Source of the DNA: Zygophlyctis sp. KS116
Taxonomy: Eukaryota > Fungi > Chytridiomycota
Assembly (NCBI GenBank): GCA_054661495.1
Contig: BAAFSQ010000100.1
Location: forward strand, 1 to 32,000
Reading direction: 5' to 3'
DNA length: 32,000 nucleotides
Shown: one piece after another, positions 3,180 to 28,283 of the stretch
Numbering within the stretch: the first letter of the stretch is position 1
Layout: each line of letters begins with the position of its first letter
Notes under the pieces: generated by a model
Seen by the model: the letters and a program-made list of their open reading frames with translations, nothing else
Database searches by the model: none
Told to the model about the DNA's origin: nothing
Made by a program: the position numbers and the translations under genes

Positions 3180-4790
3180 ATGCTTAATCCCGCATTGAAC
3201 TATTGGATCTTACTCTCTACAATTTTGCTATTTGCCTTGCCTGCTGTTTGCCGTGAGGAAGAGATTGTAGAAATTGATCATGTTGATTCCCGATCGGGAC
3301 AGGTCTGAGTATTTAGCTGATGATTAGATTTATGATAAACTGGGAAGATCTAGAATATTTCATGGAGTCAATATTGTTTACAAGGCATTTCCATACTATC
3401 CGGACTTGGACAACTTTGATCCGCGGTGGAGTTTCTCAATGGAGGATGTTAATCTATTGGCTGATCTTGGGATGAATATGATCAGACTTGATGTTTCATG
3501 GGCAGGAGCAGAACCCGAAAGAGGAAAGTATAATCAGACATATTTTGAAGTGGTACATAGGATCGTTGATATGTGCAAAAGTCGTGGGATTTACGTACTT
3601 TTAGAGTGGCACCAAGATATTTTCTCTGAACGATATTGCGGTAATGGGGCTCCTCTATGGGCTTCAAGACCACTTGACCGTGGAAATAGATTCGGGTTTC
3701 CTTTTCCAATGGGGCGGCCATTTAAGATTAATTCGTTATCCGGACTTCCGGATGCAAAACAATGCGATAATTTTTTTGTCCTGGGATATGGTAGCTACGC
3801 TCTTAGTCAAGCTTATGAAGATTTATATTTTAATTTTAATGGTATAAGGGACTCATTTGTCGACTTTTGGAAAAAGGTTGCAGTTGAATTTAGAAATTCT
3901 TCAAACGTGATTGGCTATGAATTTATTAATGGTAACTCTATTTCTTTAAAATTAGAGCCTTGGGTAGGCCAATGGGCACATGATCCATTTATTTTGACAA
4001 AGAAAGCAGATCGTACACGTCTTCAGCCATTTTATGAAGCTATATCTAGTGGAGTGAGACAAGTTGATGATCAAAAACTCTTCTTCATTGAATCTATTAA
4101 TATAGATTTGTTTCAAATTGGATTTACTAAATTTCCAGTAGCTCCAGAATACCTTAACAAGACTGTTCTATCTTGGCATTTTTACTGGAATCCACTTGGA
4201 AAACAGAGATATATCAAGGCTAGATTTGATGAAGCCCGTAGATTCCACACTGTTTCTTTTGCATCAGAAATTGATATCAGCTGGAAAGATGGAATCTCCA
4301 AGTTGTAATTATCTTCTTATTTAACAGTCGAAGATTAAACAAAAAAGTTTCGAATACATTAGAAACTATAAAAATGTTGGATAAATACAAAGTATCCTGG
4401 CTTGGATGGGAATATAAGACTTTTGTGAGAAAGACTGGATTTAATGATGGGATTTTCGATGAATCAAATGGCGAAAAGAGATCTGAAGTTCTAAAAGCGT
4501 ATTCACGCCCATACGCACATGCAGTGCCAGGCGTGATTGACTATATGAATTACGATGATGATAGAGGAAATTTCACTTTGATATGGACTGTCCCCCCATA
4601 TTATTCTTCTAAAGGCGCAGTGATATCTACGGGAAAACGTTGGCATTATCCAAAAGGAATGTTGGTTAAATTGACTCCAAACATTTCTGATTCATATCAT
4701 GAAAATGGCGCTATACTATACGTGAATAATGCAAGAAGACAATATCCTCAAACTATAAAGATAGAACTTCTTCGTGCAGATTCATATTAA
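3180..4790 (+). CDS. Secreted GH5 glycoside hydrolase, endoglycoceramidase-like, copy 1
   Basis: Signal peptide; GRSRIFHGVNIVYK, GMNMIRL, WAGAEP, HQD; acid/base GYEFINEP after splicing; nucleophile region FASE; WLGWEYK; YSRPY. Introns 3303-3327, 3932-3955, 4305-4327. Confidence 0.9.
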
Positions 4791-5394
4791 CAATAAACTC
4801 ATTGTATTTCTAGGAAAAACAGCCATTTATTCGCTGCTTACCAGTCAAATTTAGGGGATCCGCTTGTTTACACTGATCAGCCTCTTTCCACTAGGCAATA
4901 CTTGAACTTTATAATGTACTTAAAGATCTTACTCTCTACAATTTTGCTATTTGCCTTGCCTGCTGTTTGCCGTGAGGAAGAGATTGTAGAAATTGATCAT
5001 GTTGATTCCCGATCGGGACAGGTCTGAGTATTTAGCTGATGATTAGATTTATGATAAACTGGGAAGATCTAGAATATTTCATGGAGTCAATATTGTTTAC
5101 AAGGCATTTCCATACTATCCGGACTTGGACAACTTTGATCCGCGGTGGAGTTTCTCAATGGAGGATGTTAATCTATTGGCTGATCTTGGGATGAATATGA
5201 TCAGACTTGATGTTTCATGGGCAGGAGCAGAACCCGAAAGAGGAAAGTATAATCAGACATATTTTGAAGTGGTACATAGGATCGTTGATATGTGCAAAAG
5301 TCGTGGGATTTACGTACTTTTAGAGTGGCACCAAGATATTTTCTCTGAACGATATTGCGGTAATGGGGCTCCTCTATGGGCTTCAAGACCACTT
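3206..5394 (+). repeat. 470-bp identical direct repeat (3206-3675 = 4925-5394) shared by the two GH5 paralogs
   Basis: Identity by eye from gatcttactctctac to gcttcaagaccactt at offset 1719, including intron 1. Confidence 0.92.
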
Positions 5395-6491
5395 ATTCAC
5401 GGGGATAGATTTAGATTCCCGTTTCCTTGGAGTAAAACCAGAGTCGCATTATATCACAATGGGCCAATGAATGAAGAAACATGTTCAGGATTAAATTTTG
5501 CGAATGGATATTTTAATTTTGAACTCTCTCAGGCTTTTGAAGACCTGTACTTAAATTACAATGGGGTCAGAGATTCATTTGTTAATTTTTGGAGAAAAAT
5601 AGCATCTGAATTCAAGAATGAGTCTAATGTTGTCGGCTATGAATTTATAAATGGTAACTTAAATTAAAAGTAATATTAGAACCCTGGGTTGGACAATTTT
5701 GGAAGAATCCGGGGCTGATTTATACTCCAAATGCTGACTTTAATCGTCTTCAACCTCTTTACGAGTTATTACACGAAGCAGTTCGTAAAATTGACACTGA
5801 AAAGCTAATTTTCTATGAACCAGTTCCTGTCGATTTGCAAAAAGTTGGTTTTAAATCTCTTCCTGGCTCTAGTGATCAAAAATCTGTTCTTTCATGGCAT
5901 TTTTACTGGAATCCAGTTGGAAAATCAGCAGTTTTTCAAGGTAGAATTCAAGATTCAAAGAGACTTAATGTTGTACCATTTGTTTCTGAATTTGATATAA
6001 CATGGGATGGATCCTTGAGAAGAAATTTAGAAGTTGATGAAGGGGGCCTTCAAGTCAATGATTCTCTAGATACTATGAAAAGATTAGACTCTGATTTAAT
6101 TTCATGGCTTGGATGGGAATATAAAACTTATATCAAAAAGACTGGATACGGCGAAGGAATTTTTGATAGTATTAATCAAGTTCAAAGACCTGACATGATC
6201 AAACTCTATTCACGACCATTTGCACAATCTGTTTCTGGAAAAATAATTTACATGGATTATGATGATCAAGAGAATACGTTCAAGTTAAGTTGGGAAATTC
6301 CGCCATTTTCACTGTCAAAATCTTCCACTGTTATCTCTACAGGAAGAAAATGGCATTATCCAAATGGAATGGTAGTTACTATAACCCCCAATGATACCAC
6401 TTCGTATCTTTTAAAGGACAATTTGATGTTTGTGAATGCTCAAAGCCGCCAATTTACACAAATTATTAATTTGACATTAACTAGAAAATAG
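4914..6491 (+). CDS. Secreted GH5 glycoside hydrolase, endoglycoceramidase-like, copy 2
   Basis: Same motifs (GYEFINEP, FVSEF, WLGWEYK, YSRPF). Introns 5022-5046 and 5654-5679. Confidence 0.9.
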
Positions 6492-23609: not shown

Positions 23610-24183
23610 ATGTTGTTTTTCATCTTCTACATTTCTCTAGTGTCTTCATTATATGGTAATAGTTTTTATTTTATAATGAATAGTTCGGCAATTAGAAACA
23701 AGTTCGCCTCTTCCGCCAGTTGATCCGCCAGTTACAGACCCATCGGTTTCACCAACTGTTACCACAACGACAACAAGTACTACTACTACATCTCCTCCAC
23801 CTCCAACAACAACAACAACGATCCCCCCAACAATCACTTCAACAACCAATACTCCTTCAAGTACGACCATAACTTCCACCTTAACTAATCCGACCACTTC
23901 AAGTACTAGCACCAATATTCAATCACCAATTGTGACTCCATCTGGAACTGGTTCAACTTATACTTTAACTAGCATCAGTACGAATAAGCCAAACGCCACT
24001 TCAACCAATAGTCCTGAATCTGTTGAATCATCAGGCTCTTCTTCGAGTAATAAAGGTGGGATAATAGCTGGTGTTGTAGTGGGAGTTTGTGTTCTTTTAT
24101 CATTAATCTTATTGGCAGGTCTCAAATTCTGGAAGCCAAAAGGAATGTTGAAGGAGCGATTTGAATCTTCAAGGGAGTTTTAA
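23610..24183 (+). CDS. Thr/Ser/Pro-rich single-pass surface protein (Mid2/mucin-like) no. 1
   Basis: Signal exon MLFFIFYISLVSSLY, 28-nt intron 23656-23683, Thr-rich stalk, TM GGIIAGVVVGVCVLLSLILLAGL, short basic tail. Confidence 0.75.
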
Positions 24184-24382
24184 TCTGATTTTTAAAAAAA
24201 TAATACATGATCAATTATTATTGAATAAGATGGAAAACTGGAAAATAATATTTTACCTACTATAGTAATTGTAATAAATTAGACTATTATTCTGGATTCA
24301 TAAAGCGGCACAACACTGTCACGGGGTATCGCCGCAATCTTTATATATCTTTTTCATTTCTAAAAATAGTATAAGAAATAAT

Positions 24383-25083
24383 ATGCAACTCATTTCCAAA
24401 CTCTTCATTATTAGTTATCGTAAGTGTTTCTAATGTTTTAATTGATAGTTATATTCGATAGTTCTCAACAGCCAAAGGGGACCAGGCCTTCCCCATCTCC
24501 GCCAGAATCTCCTCCTCCAGTCTCTGTGTCGCCAGCATCTCCTCCTCCAGTCTCTCCTCCTCCAGAAACATCACCGGTTATAATAAGGCCATCTCCATCT
24601 CCTCCGTCTCCGTCTCCATCTCCTCCTCTCCCATCACCGGTTATTCCATCTCCAACAGATCCTTCTGATGAACCGGGGACCACTTTCATTATTGTTACCG
24701 ACAACGACGGAAGTTCACCAGTTGTTAGAACTGTAATACTCCCACAATCTACTCCAACTTCTAAAGTAAATAATACAGCCTCGAAAAGCTCTTCTGAAGC
24801 CAGTAATTCTTCCAATGTGGCATTGGGAGCTGGTTTAGCAGTTGGAATTCTGTGTCTAGCGATACTTGGAATTTGGATTTTCAAAAAGCAAGTTTCTAAA
24901 TCGGAAGAGTTTAAGAATAGACTCAACAGACCGGGATCACCGCCACCTGCTGCTTATGAGAAAAGTATTCCTTCGAATGGGAGTGCAGAATTGGAACGAC
25001 AGCAACCATTTGGAGGATATGATGCGGACTCTTTTGAATATAACGCTAATCCAGAAGGCAAACCGAAATATGCACTATTTTAG
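24383..25083 (+). CDS. Pro/Ser-rich single-pass surface protein no. 2
   Basis: MQLISKLFIISY, 29-nt intron 24420-24448, SP/PPS stalk, TM VALGAGLAVGILCLAILGIWIF, tail with SEEFKNRL and GYDADSF. Confidence 0.75.
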
Positions 25084-25248
25084 TGAATCAATAAATTCTC
25101 TCAACTTGAAATTCTTAATGATCCATTGAGGACAAACAATCCATTGAGTAATAAACTAGACGTTTAAACATTATGAGACTTATCCTGAGAAACTTAATTA
25201 TGGATTATCATGCGACTTTCAGCATGAACAAGCTGCTTTTGATACAAA

Positions 25249-26310
25249 ATGATGCAGGAGTTAAACAAGTGGAACAATGCTAAATGGAAATATTGGACTT
25301 TGACTATTAAAGATTGTAATTGGAAACCTCCTGGAAGAATTGAAAAACTCTCAAATATAAAATATATCAGAGGACAGCTAGAGTTTTCTAAAAGTCAATA
25401 TCTTTACTGGAAAATTGCCATTCAATATTTTGAGCCAACTAGTGTCTCTAACGTAAGAGATCAGTTTTCAAAGGAAGCGCATGTAGAACCCATATATTCG
25501 CAAACTGAATGGAATTATGTCTGGAATGAAAATTCTTTATGTAAGGGGACTCGATTTGAATTGGGTGATAATTCGGACATGATGAATACAATTTCTGCAA
25601 GAAAGTCAGGATCAGAAGTAAATCCATTTGTGGTTGAAACTCAACAAAAATTAGATATCAATGATTTGGAAAAAAAACTGATAAATATAGCAGAAAATCT
25701 ATACTTTCTTCCAAATGAATTCTTGGAAATATTGTGGAATATTGTTCAAAATGTAGAAATTGATGAAGTAATCGATGCAACAAATTTGAAAGATTTTGAT
25801 AAACTATTGGGTGTAGAATCACCAAATATGATTGATCCTTTAAAAACAAATTTTGAAATTCCAAAGAATCAAGGAAAAGATCAGGATATTCAAGAGCTTG
25901 AAAAATTGGTTCAATTAATTCATTCAACAAATTTAGAAGATTATGATGAATTTCTGGAAATGGAATCTCAAGATATTGCAAAGTCTTTAGGGCTGGTGAC
26001 TCCTCCTTCAAAGAGAACCATTGGTTTTCCTAAAAATCACGGAAAGAAATGGCAGGTTATAGATATTGAAGATTTGGATAAGGATTTAAAATCAGATTTT
26101 ACTCTTGAAGAAATTGCTCAAAAATTAAATCGGACAAAGAAATCAATTCAAATTAAAACTTGTGAATGTGCAATCAGATTAATCAATAGTGGAGTTTGTC
26201 CTGAAAGGGTGATTCAGCTTTACAAGAATAAGGTTGACATGAAAATGCTAATCGACCATCTGGTATACAGAAATTTAAGTACAAGTAATAAAAGACCAAA
26301 AACAAAATGA
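25249..26310 (+). CDS. Chimeric protein: CRESS-DNA-virus Rep-like HUH endonuclease domain (altered motifs) plus repeated Myb/HTH-like C-terminus; putative endogenous viral element-derived gene
   Basis: aa 11-106: YWTLTI (motif I), YIRGQLE, YLYWK (motif II position), AHVEP, YVWN (motif III position), GTRFELG. C-terminus PKNHGKKW..TLEEIAQKLNRTKKSI. No Walker A; intronless. Confidence 0.75.
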   Translation: MMQELNKWNNAKWKYWTLTIKDCNWKPPGRIEKLSNIKYIRGQLEFSKSQYLYWKIAIQYFEPTSVSNVRDQFSKEAHVEPIYSQTEWNYVWNENSLCKGTRFELGDNSDMMNTISARKSGSEVNPFVVETQQKLDINDLEKKLINIAENLYFLPNEFLEILWNIVQNVEIDEVIDATNLKDFDKLLGVESPNMIDPLKTNFEIPKNQGKDQDIQELEKLVQLIHSTNLEDYDEFLEMESQDIAKSLGLVTPPSKRTIGFPKNHGKKWQVIDIEDLDKDLKSDFTLEEIAQKLNRTKKSIQIKTCECAIRLINSGVCPERVIQLYKNKVDMKMLIDHLVYRNLSTSNKRPKTK

Positions 26311-26479
26311 TTTAAGTTTTGTATTTAAATCTAAATTTGTGAACTAATTAGTCTCATGTCCGAATACTAAATCAGTAGAAAATTATTTAACCTGAAAGAG
26401 AAATTTCTCTATCAGCTCATTGTCGGGTGGTGAAATAAATGCCCGATGAGAACAATGCAACATTTAAGAAAAAAACAAA

Positions 26480-26837
26480 ATGAAATGGATCATCATTCTC
26501 ATTAGCTTTTGTAAGATTATCAACATAAAATTAATTATAGTTGTTCTGATAGTTGTTGGCCAAGCAAATAACACTAGTGTTGCGCCTCCACAAGCTACAT
26601 CAAACAGCACACCATCCCCAAAGGTAATGATGAATCTTGTCGGACTTAGAACCTCACCATCAAACAATACCGCAACATCATCATCGCCAAATGCACCAAG
26701 TCCTTTGGTCTGGGGCATTATCATTGGAGTGGGCATACTTCATTTCTGTTGCGATCATACTGTTTAGAAAATATTCTAACAGGATATCGCAAGAGGGTCG
26801 GGTTACATCTGTTAGGCTCCTATCAGAGCTAAATTAA
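26480..26837 (+). pseudogene. Frameshifted, shortened paralog of surface protein no. 4
   Basis: Near-identical upstream region, signal exon and 30-nt intron (26511-26540) to the gene at 27513. The TM segment switches frame (WGIIIGVGI.. / ..FISVAIILFRKYSNRISQEG), with a stop at 26767 in the first frame. Confidence 0.6.
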
Positions 26838-27512
26838 TATAGGAATTTAATAGTAAGTGGGCGTATTCGGCGAAAAAAACGCACGCTCGAACTGATTACG
26901 ATGTACAAATTTGAGCCATGAGTGCTTCCAATGATTAAAGAACAGCTCTGACAGACCGCATTACAGCCCAAAAAAGTGATGAAAATATTGATTTGACAGA
27001 GGAAATTCTTAAACTGAATAACTTGTAGTTTTCTCAAAGAAGGAAGTATATATAGCTGAATTTATGCTCATAGATGTTTTCGAGGGAAGAGATATGATCG
27101 GACTTAGAAGTGGGAATGGTTCGGTGAATGATAGAACAATTGGGGCAGCAGCTTGGGGAAATCTTAAACGTTCTGAACAAAAAGAATGGGAACAAAAGGA
27201 ATTATTTTATAACTTATTGGTAGAAGAAGTAGCTATGATTCATTAAATTTCATACATCTCCAATACACACAAAATCATGGGTTAGTTCGAGCGTCACATT
27301 TTATTCGCCGAAATCCGCCCTTGACTGGGGTTTTTGGTTTTTGTTGTGGTTCCTATATATTCAAATGTATAAATAAGATGGTTGTTATCGTATTTGAAAC
27401 TTTTCATCTTAAGCCTATTTTAAATTCATGATGAAAAATTCAACCAACGGATGCATTGTTTAGTGAAATAAATGCCCGATGAGAACAATGCAACATCTAA
27501 AAAATAAACAAA

Positions 27513-28283
27513 ATGAAATGGATCATCATTCTCATTAGCTTTTGTAAGATCATCAACATAAAATTAATTATAGTCACTTTGATAGTTGTTGGCCAAGGAA
27601 ATAACACTAGTGTTGCGCCTCCACAAACTTCACCTCCACCAGCAACCTCCAGCCCGCCTCAACCACCACCTCCTCCTCCGCCTCCACCAACATCATCCAT
27701 TCAACCACCTCCTCCTCCGCCTCCACCAACATCATCCATTCAACCACCTCCTCCTCCGCCCCCACCAACATCATCCATTCAACCACCACCTCCTCCGCCT
27801 CCACCAACATCATCCAACCCTCCACCGACATCTGCTCCACGACCTTCTTCAACTCCTGCCTCCAGTCGGACGAATTCTGGTCAACAGGGTACTACTACTA
27901 TGACTGATTTAACAACTTCTACAACTTCTACAACTTCACCATCTTCAACATCAAACCAAGCCTCATCATCGTCATCAAATGCTTTGATCGTGGGAATTTC
28001 AATCGGATTAGTTTTACTTGTCCTAGCAGTTGTTGGAATTATGATTTTTAGAAATGGAATGAATGGATTATCTAAAGCTGGTAATGATTCTGAATCTCAA
28101 GGCCATGAATTGACTCCAGTACAGTACCAGCGTCAACAGGCGTCAACACCGATAAGAGAAGGCAGTTTTCAGTCTCAACCCGCACAGACACCACCGAATG
28201 GTTATAATGCTGATTATTTTGATTCACAAGGAAATTTCAGTTATGATTCACCTCGAGCTAGAAATACTGGCGCATATTTATGA
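27513..28283 (+). CDS. Polyproline/Thr-rich single-pass surface protein no. 4
   Basis: MKWIIILISF, 30-nt intron 27544-27573, FTLIVVGQ; repeated PPPPPPPTSSIQ; TM ALIVGISIGLVLLVLAVVGIMIF; tail GYNADYF. Confidence 0.8.
   Translation: MKWIIILISFCKIINIKLIIVTLIVVGQGNNTSVAPPQTSPPPATSSPPQPPPPPPPPPTSSIQPPPPPPPPTSSIQPPPPPPPPTSSIQPPPPPPPPTSSNPPPTSAPRPSSTPASSRTNSGQQGTTTMTDLTTSTTSTTSPSSTSNQASSSSSNALIVGISIGLVLLVLAVVGIMIFRNGMNGLSKAGNDSESQGHELTPVQYQRQQASTPIREGSFQSQPAQTPPNGYNADYFDSQGNFSYDSPRARNTGAYL
27660..27830 (+). repeat. 36-bp coding minisatellite (about 4 units encoding QPPPPPPPPTSSI-like peptide)
   Basis: Repeated caaccacctcctcctccgcctccaccaacatcatccatt-type units. Confidence 0.9.

Follow-up and report, generated by a model that had tools for sequence, protein, structure and literature searches.

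What is a virus-like replication protein doing in the chromosome of a chytrid fungus? The question is raised by an open reading frame of Zygophlyctis sp. KS116, which lies in the 32,000-nucleotide stretch of DNA analysed here (the window; contig BAAFSQ010000100.1). The protein it encodes, P0001, begins with a nuclease domain like that of a CRESS-DNA virus Rep and ends with a predicted Myb-like helix-turn-helix (HTH) module. The reading preferred here, in which we place about half of our confidence, is that P0001 belongs to a domesticated Rep family and has been kept by its host as a protein that binds DNA without cutting it. The frame and its two neighbours are arranged as follows.

25249..26310, + strand: whole open reading frame, P0001, 353 aa; HUH domain, helical hairpin, Myb-like HTH module and basic tail, with relatives of the same architecture
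24385..25083, + strand: upstream host neighbour, a spliced Pro/Ser-rich single-pass membrane gene (context)
26430..26767, + strand: downstream neighbour, a shortened duplicate of the gene at 27513-28283 (context)

The initial annotation described an intron-free gene of 353 residues at this position on the forward strand. The frame is present and without a stop. In a chance test of its length, the longest stop-free frame among 1000 shuffles of 25001-27500 had 159 codons, against 353 residues in the ORF. The word "intron-free" holds for the open frame and goes no further, since RNA contigs span only the upstream neighbour, whose spliced form is visible in one. Three shallow metatranscriptomes gave contigs over parts of that neighbour and none over the ORF (3/3), too thin a sample for the gene to be called silent. 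The GC3 of the ORF is 0.24, which is inside the range of the eight other ORFs of the window (0.21-0.30) and thus host-like.

The locus had been taken to be chromosomal. It is, and as far as tested it is single-copy. One 15.8-kb contig crosses the ORF and joins it to host genes upstream; its depth is even, at 149 and 144 in two deep runs. Among the contigs listed for these runs, none is a second copy with an identity of 88% or above. Data from other studies cover the junctions as well, with one contig across the start of the ORF (run X5) and another across its 3' end (run X6). No capsid or helicase is matched in the window, where two capsids served as queries and divergent ones could escape. 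The origin nonanucleotide ANTATTAC is absent between 24741 and 29633, and Rfam has no match at the locus.

Around the ORF, genes for Pro/Ser/Thr-rich single-pass membrane proteins form a tandem array (23676-28283). Within this array, 26430-26599 duplicates 27463-27632 at 94%, and 39-base repeats occur within 27626-27859. The array adjoins a 462-base element at 26859-27320 with terminal inverted repeats of about 35 bases that begin GGGCG. Several diverged copies of the element exist in the genome (depth up to about 4x background, with loose ends); it looks like a MITE, with a target-site duplication not evident. A 10-base direct repeat, possibly a chance one, occurs in two copies at 25121-25148, about 100 bases 5' of the start codon.

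The N-terminal part of the protein contains one feature.

25279..25569, + strand: CRESS-virus Rep HUH (Y1) endonuclease domain, aa 11-107 (by hhalign, Foldseek, BFVD and ESM Atlas)

A CRESS Rep origin had been proposed for this part, and profile, fold, BFVD and ESM Atlas comparisons agree on it. The family profile matches 32 CRESS Reps, 29 of them with a Walker A motif, at an hhalign probability of 99.84 (E 2.9e-30), and it matches the viral Rep P0131 at E 3e-22. The match to the 32 Reps is confined to aa 9-109, with nothing beyond. P0001 also has no Walker A motif, so the helicase is missing as had been claimed. The Pfam model Viral_Rep (PF02407) gives no hit for P0001 at its curated cut-off of 26 bits. 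The best relative reaches 24.7 bits, and the model also misses some complete viral Reps, P0131 (25.3 bits) among them. Single-sequence searches of Pfam, NCBIfam and PDB sequences returned nothing informative; their alginate lyase, RXLR-effector and ABC-flippase rows are at chance level. From 1.84 billion representatives, a search retrieved 123 hits. Among the 105 weaker ones, a motif II-like word is present in 97 and Walker A in 29.

The fold leads to the same viruses. The AlphaFold model (pLDDT 76-88 over aa 11-110) is closest to nanovirus and circovirus Rep nuclease domains. Foldseek lists 18 matches at E 0.001 or below, headed by 6h8o, 7kii, 8h56 and 6wdz, the best being nanovirus M-Rep (6h8o; E 6.9e-6, TM 0.80 by target). 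Likewise, BFVD returns Cressdnaviricota Reps (best E 2.7e-11) and the ESM Atlas returns Cressdnaviricota Rep clusters at 0.94.

Among CRESS Reps (Cressdnaviricota, circovirus/nanovirus-type HUQ, Y1), the nearest are the unclassified environmental Reps P0131 and P0025 and those of the loci L002 and L004. What is shared with them is the HUH domain, over about 99 columns at 31-40% identity, including motif I, GQLE, W54, H-x-E, Y90 and FELG. Unlike CRESS Reps or proviruses, the chytrid gene has no detectable oligomerisation domain, SF3 helicase, capsid or origin. The chytrid family is set apart from CRESS Reps by a long branch and by conserved residues of its own (W88, D107, Q59-Y-F and P63).

L002 (2813 bases) and L004 (2653 bases) are ordinary unclassified CRESS genomes. 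Each contains a Rep and a capsid-like gene; in L002 the latter lies on the opposite strand, in L004 on the same one. Their Reps align to the window only at 25288-25596. L002 was the one genome returned by a viral-contig scan with the family alignment. Similar scans with the HUH and HTH parts of the window gave L001, a spurious stretch of phage, in one case and no contig in the other.

A few residues bear on whether such a domain could still cut DNA.

25294..25308, + strand: rolling-circle motif I, W-T-L-T-I, intact
25381..25383, + strand: E45, likely the third metal ligand, intact (role from PMC10288648)
25405..25413, + strand: motif II, altered to Y-W-K, with both metal-ligand positions changed
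25516..25527, + strand: motif III, partly altered; catalytic Tyr kept, Asn at the Lys position

All motif words read earlier from the sequence are found in the translation of the ORF, and the changes reported for motifs II and III are real: the residues are Y53-W54-K55, with Y90 kept and N93 in place of Lys, while T19 and E45 are also kept. At the five catalytic positions, helicase-bearing viral Reps have E, H, Q or H, Y and K in 60 of 60 cases, compared with E45, Y53, K55, Y90 and N93 in P0001. An active CRESS Rep requires H-x-H/Q in motif II and Y-x-x-K in motif III, and P0001 has neither. Since P0001 has lost the two ligands of motif II as well as the Lys of motif III, it is unlikely to nick DNA (HUH chemistry as described in PMC10288648). 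In its close relative P0002, a change at position 78 falls on a His that is conserved in viral Reps.

Beyond the HUH domain, the protein is no longer Rep-like. Four features follow.

25645..25776, + strand: family-specific two-helix hairpin, aa 133-176
25744..26046, + strand: in-frame internal tandem duplication, aa 166-210 and 214-266; units 67% identical in nucleotides
26026..26277, + strand: predicted Myb/SANT/GcrA-like HTH and three further helices, aa 260-343; nearest are HTH proteins of viruses and prokaryotes
26278..26307, + strand: basic C-terminal tail; 4-11 K/R in the last 22 aa in 16 of the 16 relatives printed

The hairpin was considered as a remnant of the viral oligomerisation domain. 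This was ruled out, as its match to 80 viral oligomerisation domains (probability 0.2%) falls within 40 shuffles. When two hairpins were modelled together, the predicted complex scored 0.01. The score of the internal duplication was reached in 0 of 500 shuffles, and among the aligned relatives only P0001 and P0002 have it.

The C-terminus had been called Myb/HTH-like. As a predicted fold, this is supported by the structural model and by matches to phrog_323 and to HTH clusters. The module is modelled with a pLDDT of 88-97. It superimposes on the Myb domains of Cdc5 and Reb1 at Z 7.0 (rmsd 1.3-1.4 over 49 residues), which is under the guide value of Z 8, and on the GcrA DNA-binding domain at a middling Z of 6.2. 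The phrog_323 match is found in 9 of 12 family members, and Pfam Myb in one relative only (17 bits). The basic tail is likely to be a nuclear localisation signal.

The same architecture is found in Globomyces, Terramyces and Boothiomyces and in many metagenomes. Globomyces pollinis-pini (Globomycetaceae) has KAI8892490, and Terramyces sp. JEL0728, which we take to belong to the Terramycetaceae, has KAJ3267660. Boothiomyces macroporosus (Terramycetaceae) has two Rep-bearing genes with adjacent locus tags, KAJ3253603 and KAJ3253604, which are diverged from each other, and a third, Rep-less gene (KAJ3254819) located elsewhere. The clusters of these named chytrid proteins have one member each. UniRef already labels one Boothiomyces member as CRESS-DNA virus Rep endonuclease domain-containing. 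The Rep domain is thus detectable automatically, though no published description was found. A single metagenome scan yielded two loci from 165 candidate stretches: L003, a family member of 1053 bases, and the CRESS genome L004. P0001 is evidently no one-off fossil, and belongs to an old gene family present in three chytrid genera.

How often was the Rep domain acquired? A tree was built from the HUH domains of 15 family members together with 20 viral Reps, the best among 121 that bear a helicase. P0057 was excluded for its very long branch, and so were two near-copies and the partial sequences P0019 and P0021. All family domains fall on one side of a branch (100/100), and the Terramyces and Boothiomyces copies group together (99/99). 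A quick tree with 60 viral rows agrees on the single clade except for P0057. Because the family domains form one clade, the tree indicates one old capture. On a tree of the C-terminal part, weighing a Rep-less ancestral form against a derived one involves four changes, with the forks mostly open.

The initial annotation had supposed that nicking was lost first and that the fusion came later. The family tells against this order. The fusion is family-wide, and all five catalytic residues are kept in 10 of its 16 members, so that catalysis was lost after the fusion. The fusion likely arose as an active nuclease, and catalytic loss is secondary and repeated. P0001 lost H, Q and K, the Globomyces member the Tyr, P0012 four of the five residues, and one Boothiomyces paralog the His. 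At least two changes are needed on the HUH tree, and more if the C-terminal tree is right, since the latter pairs P0012 with an intact member.

Individual members vary further. In P0006, a helix-hairpin-helix domain (HHH_8) sits between two copies of a duplicated segment; the insert looks as though a Mus81-like host gene fragment had been captured. P0057 is very diverged, with nearly all HUH motifs lost and the HTH module kept. P0004, P0008 and P0022/P0241 carry N-terminal extensions, and that of P0241 joins the hairpin and HTH directly, without a Rep domain. These extensions seem to us to resemble the Crinkler-type ubiquitin-like headers of chytrids; Pfam gave no Crinkler-header hit on those of P0004, P0008 and P0241. 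P0001 itself has no such header. Many relatives are broken or truncated (P0009, P0010, P0015, P0019, P0021 with P0018, and P0236 with P0239). This counts against a host function, as transposon copies or dispensable paralogs would look the same.

The rival explanation that survives best takes the family to be the transposase of a low-copy, helicase-less HUH transposon of Rhizophydiales, derived from a CRESS Rep independently of Replitrons. P0001 would then be an immobilised, dead relic. In such an element, nicking and joining of the ends would fall to the HUH domain, and their recognition and pairing to the HTH and hairpin. This is possible, though we consider it doubtful. It would explain why so many members are catalytically intact despite deep divergence, and the order of nuclease, helical domain, HTH and basic tail would suit a transposase. 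The broken copies, the variable N-terminal extensions and the P0006 insert are consistent with it, as is the setting of the ORF, a tandem array that is unstable and adjoins an inverted-repeat element. Low copy number is no obstacle in itself, as autonomous Replitrons are often very low in copy in compact genomes according to PMC10288648. On the other hand, no second copy was seen among the contigs listed for the two deep runs. The flanks of the ORF have no terminal direct or inverted repeats and no stable hairpin, and no termini are shared between the locus and the 1053 bases of L003. The Rep-bearing copies of Boothiomyces are adjacent and diverged, not dispersed and near-identical, and the clusters of the named chytrid proteins are single-member.

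If P0001 instead belongs to a domesticated Rep family, as we prefer, its history could have run in three steps. First, the HUH domain alone would have been captured once, without oligomerisation domain or helicase, into a gene that encoded the hairpin and Myb-like HTH. This capture would predate the split between Globomyces and the Terramycetaceae. Next, the fusion would have been retained as a likely active, helicase-less nicking enzyme, as the intact motifs of most members suggest, with duplication and loss along the way. The last step is visible in the sequence: in the P0001 lineage, the two ligands of motif II and the Lys of motif III have changed, with frame and fold retained.

A variant of the first step places the fusion in a giant DNA virus that held a captured CRESS Rep and was later endogenised in the fungus. 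We consider this improbable. It was suggested by the six best BFVD rows for the C-terminal model, all giant-virus proteins (from Marseillevirus, Harvfovirus, Hyperionvirus, Terrestrivirus and Yasminevirus; E 0.002-0.03). BFVD contains viral proteins only, however, and no C-terminal match in it reached E 0.001; bacterial and phage HTH clusters also match the module, at 0.84-0.90. The relative P0093 lies on a 27-kb IMG/VR contig together with RNR, ThyX and a methyltransferase, and avipoxviruses have made such captures of a CRESS Rep. Giant viruses do infect zoosporic fungi (as reported in PMC13533422). Against this, scans of viral contigs, which were pattern-based and of low sensitivity, found no contig encoding the fused protein, and the tested neighbours are host genes. 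A giant-virus source for the HTH module is a lead, not a result.

A broader proposal, which is speculative and would more probably fail than hold, combines these elements. Rhizophydiales would hold a helicase-less HUH nuclease family, assembled once from a CRESS Rep nickase and a giant-virus-type Myb-like module. Its intact members would be a further, independent lineage of eukaryotic HUH transposons or a host nuclease directed at the origins of ssDNA viruses, and its dead members, P0001 among them, would have been retained repeatedly as decoys that regulate them. If true, parts of two unrelated virus groups would have been joined in one chytrid nuclease family.

Is the dead version kept by its host? 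Purifying selection had been claimed. A codon model gives an omega of 0.27 overall (p 5e-9) for a single pair, P0001 and L003. By domain, omega is 0.23 in the HUH domain, 0.21 in the hairpin and 0.30 in the HTH, at a dS of about 1.6. Constraint acts on the three domains alike. L003 belongs to the cluster of P0012, is itself catalytically altered and is the sole relative that provides DNA for the model. Simple counting on the same pair gives about 0.45, and the codon-model estimate covers ancestral time in which the active site was possibly intact. The strain variants listed for runs X4 and X6 comprise 9 synonymous and 8 non-synonymous changes, where about 20% synonymous would be expected (p 0.002-0.016; contigs of depth below 5). 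In the HUH domain, the listed variants are 3 synonymous and 0 non-synonymous. X6 has up to 8 further differences; if all were non-synonymous, p would be 0.04-0.17.

These data bear on another rival explanation, in which the family was once functional and P0001 is a recent pseudogene in early decay, its frame open only because little time has passed since its loss. In simulation, 17% of neutral frames as long as this one remained open after 3% substitution (indels ignored), so the recent split between P0001 and P0002 proves little. The missing RNA contigs point weakly in the same direction, 8 of the 14 listed X6 variants are non-synonymous, and P0012, the other dead lineage, has an allele split inside its HUH domain. 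Yet synonymous variants are in excess, and the internal duplicates have diverged down to 67% identity with in-frame gaps only. The stem leading to P0001 and P0002 also speaks against this explanation: it measures 0.24 substitutions per site on the HUH tree and 0.48 on the C-terminal tree with the frame intact, whereas 0 of 2000 simulated frames survived 0.2. Recent decay is for these reasons rather unlikely, slightly more so than an origin in a giant virus.

Finally, a free virus, a plasmid or a misassembly is out of the question for practical purposes, as the ORF is contiguous with host genes at equal depth, its junctions occur in independent runs, and annotated homologs exist in three cultured chytrid genomes. 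In its favour, the window probably stems from a metagenome assembly.

This leaves the reading of P0001 as a non-cutting DNA-binding protein kept by the host, and what such a protein might do. The protein would be nuclear. Its Myb-like HTH would grip double-stranded DNA, and the dead HUH fold could hold single-stranded or hairpin DNA without nicking it. In this way, P0001 might occupy sites used by active Reps, be they the origins of CRESS viruses or the targets of family members that are still active. The outcome would be a decoy or a repressor, its target being a guess within the non-cutting reading. The initial annotation had suggested a dominant-negative factor. The usual basis for such an effect is gone, because the viral oligomerisation domain is not detectable, and poisoning of viral Rep oligomers is accordingly less likely on the evidence of the domain layout.

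Captured Reps with altered endonuclease motifs have been described elsewhere. An example is apvRep of avipoxviruses, which has dead HUH motifs and a dN/dS of 0.17-0.33, and of which apvRep-1 is endonuclease-only (PMC10193959). The chytrid protein resembles apvRep and U94 of HHV-6, as that source describes them, in being a captured Rep with altered motifs under similar purifying selection. Here, however, the recipient is a cellular eukaryote and the captured domain has gained a new DNA-binding module as its fusion partner. Moreover, all apvReps have an inactivated HUH motif (PMC10193959), whereas most members of the chytrid family are catalytically intact.

Replitrons are another example of eukaryotic helicase-less Y1/HUQ Reps that are related to CRESS Reps and followed by a helical domain (PMC10288648). 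As characterised there, they occur in algae, plants and stramenopiles and carry the signatures GYxxK and SUTU. Their domain 2 has four helices, and their termini bear short direct repeats. Their type of Rep, Y1 HUQ without helicase, is matched at the level of the chytrid family, though in P0001 the motifs are altered. Unlike Replitrons, the chytrid family has [DN]YVWK and W-[IL]-L-T in place of GYxxK and SUTU, is far closer to extant CRESS Reps, and has a Myb-like HTH. Terminal repeats are absent around the ORF, but old termini could have decayed.

Rep sequences have also been found in fungi. BdDV-1, a CRESS virus integrated in Batrachochytrium dendrobatidis, is already in print, with integrated Rep homologs ORF3 and ORF4 (10.1101/2023.03.16.532857). 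Like P0001, it places a CRESS Rep sequence in a chytrid chromosome. By its description in that source, it is a recent, strain-specific provirus with a capsid, whereas the chytrid family would be an old capture of a single domain in a chimeric gene. Tuber melanosporum has a geminivirus-like transposon with 42 near-identical copies and terminal inverted repeats, and among other endogenous Rep-like genes of fungi some are conserved and expressed and some transposon-like (PMC3198968). These share with P0001 an ssDNA-virus Rep in a fungal chromosome. They are geminivirus-like, and the account in PMC3198968, so far as it covers them, reports no Myb-like fusion such as the chytrid family has. A full-text search of the literature, supplementary tables of endogenous elements aside, found no account of a family of Rep-HUH and Myb-like proteins in chytrids. 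CRESS integration in a chytrid, fungal Rep genes and captured dead Reps are thus already known; on that search, what appears to be new is the architecture of the family.

Captured CRESS Reps are usually short-lived fossils. The chytrid capture gave rise to a fungal gene family that has lasted long and is under selection; it has acquired a new partner domain and includes both intact and dead versions. This raises the question of what use a eukaryote makes of a captured rolling-circle nickase, be it transposition, antiviral defence or regulation. Since one cultured species, Boothiomyces macroporosus, has three family members, the question is testable in culture. The capture further suggests that chytrids have long hosted a CRESS lineage that is abundant in the environment and unclassified. 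According to PMC13533422, the known DNA viruses of fungi number no more than a handful.

Two minor observations may be added. The P0029 cluster (10 ENA members, on contigs of up to 5 kb) combines a CRESS HUH domain with intact motifs and two PC4 ssDNA-binding domains, also without a helicase. Elsewhere in the window, at 3439-6491, glycosidase-like genes form a tandem duplicate pair with near-identical starts, which we assume to be endoglycoceramidase-like.
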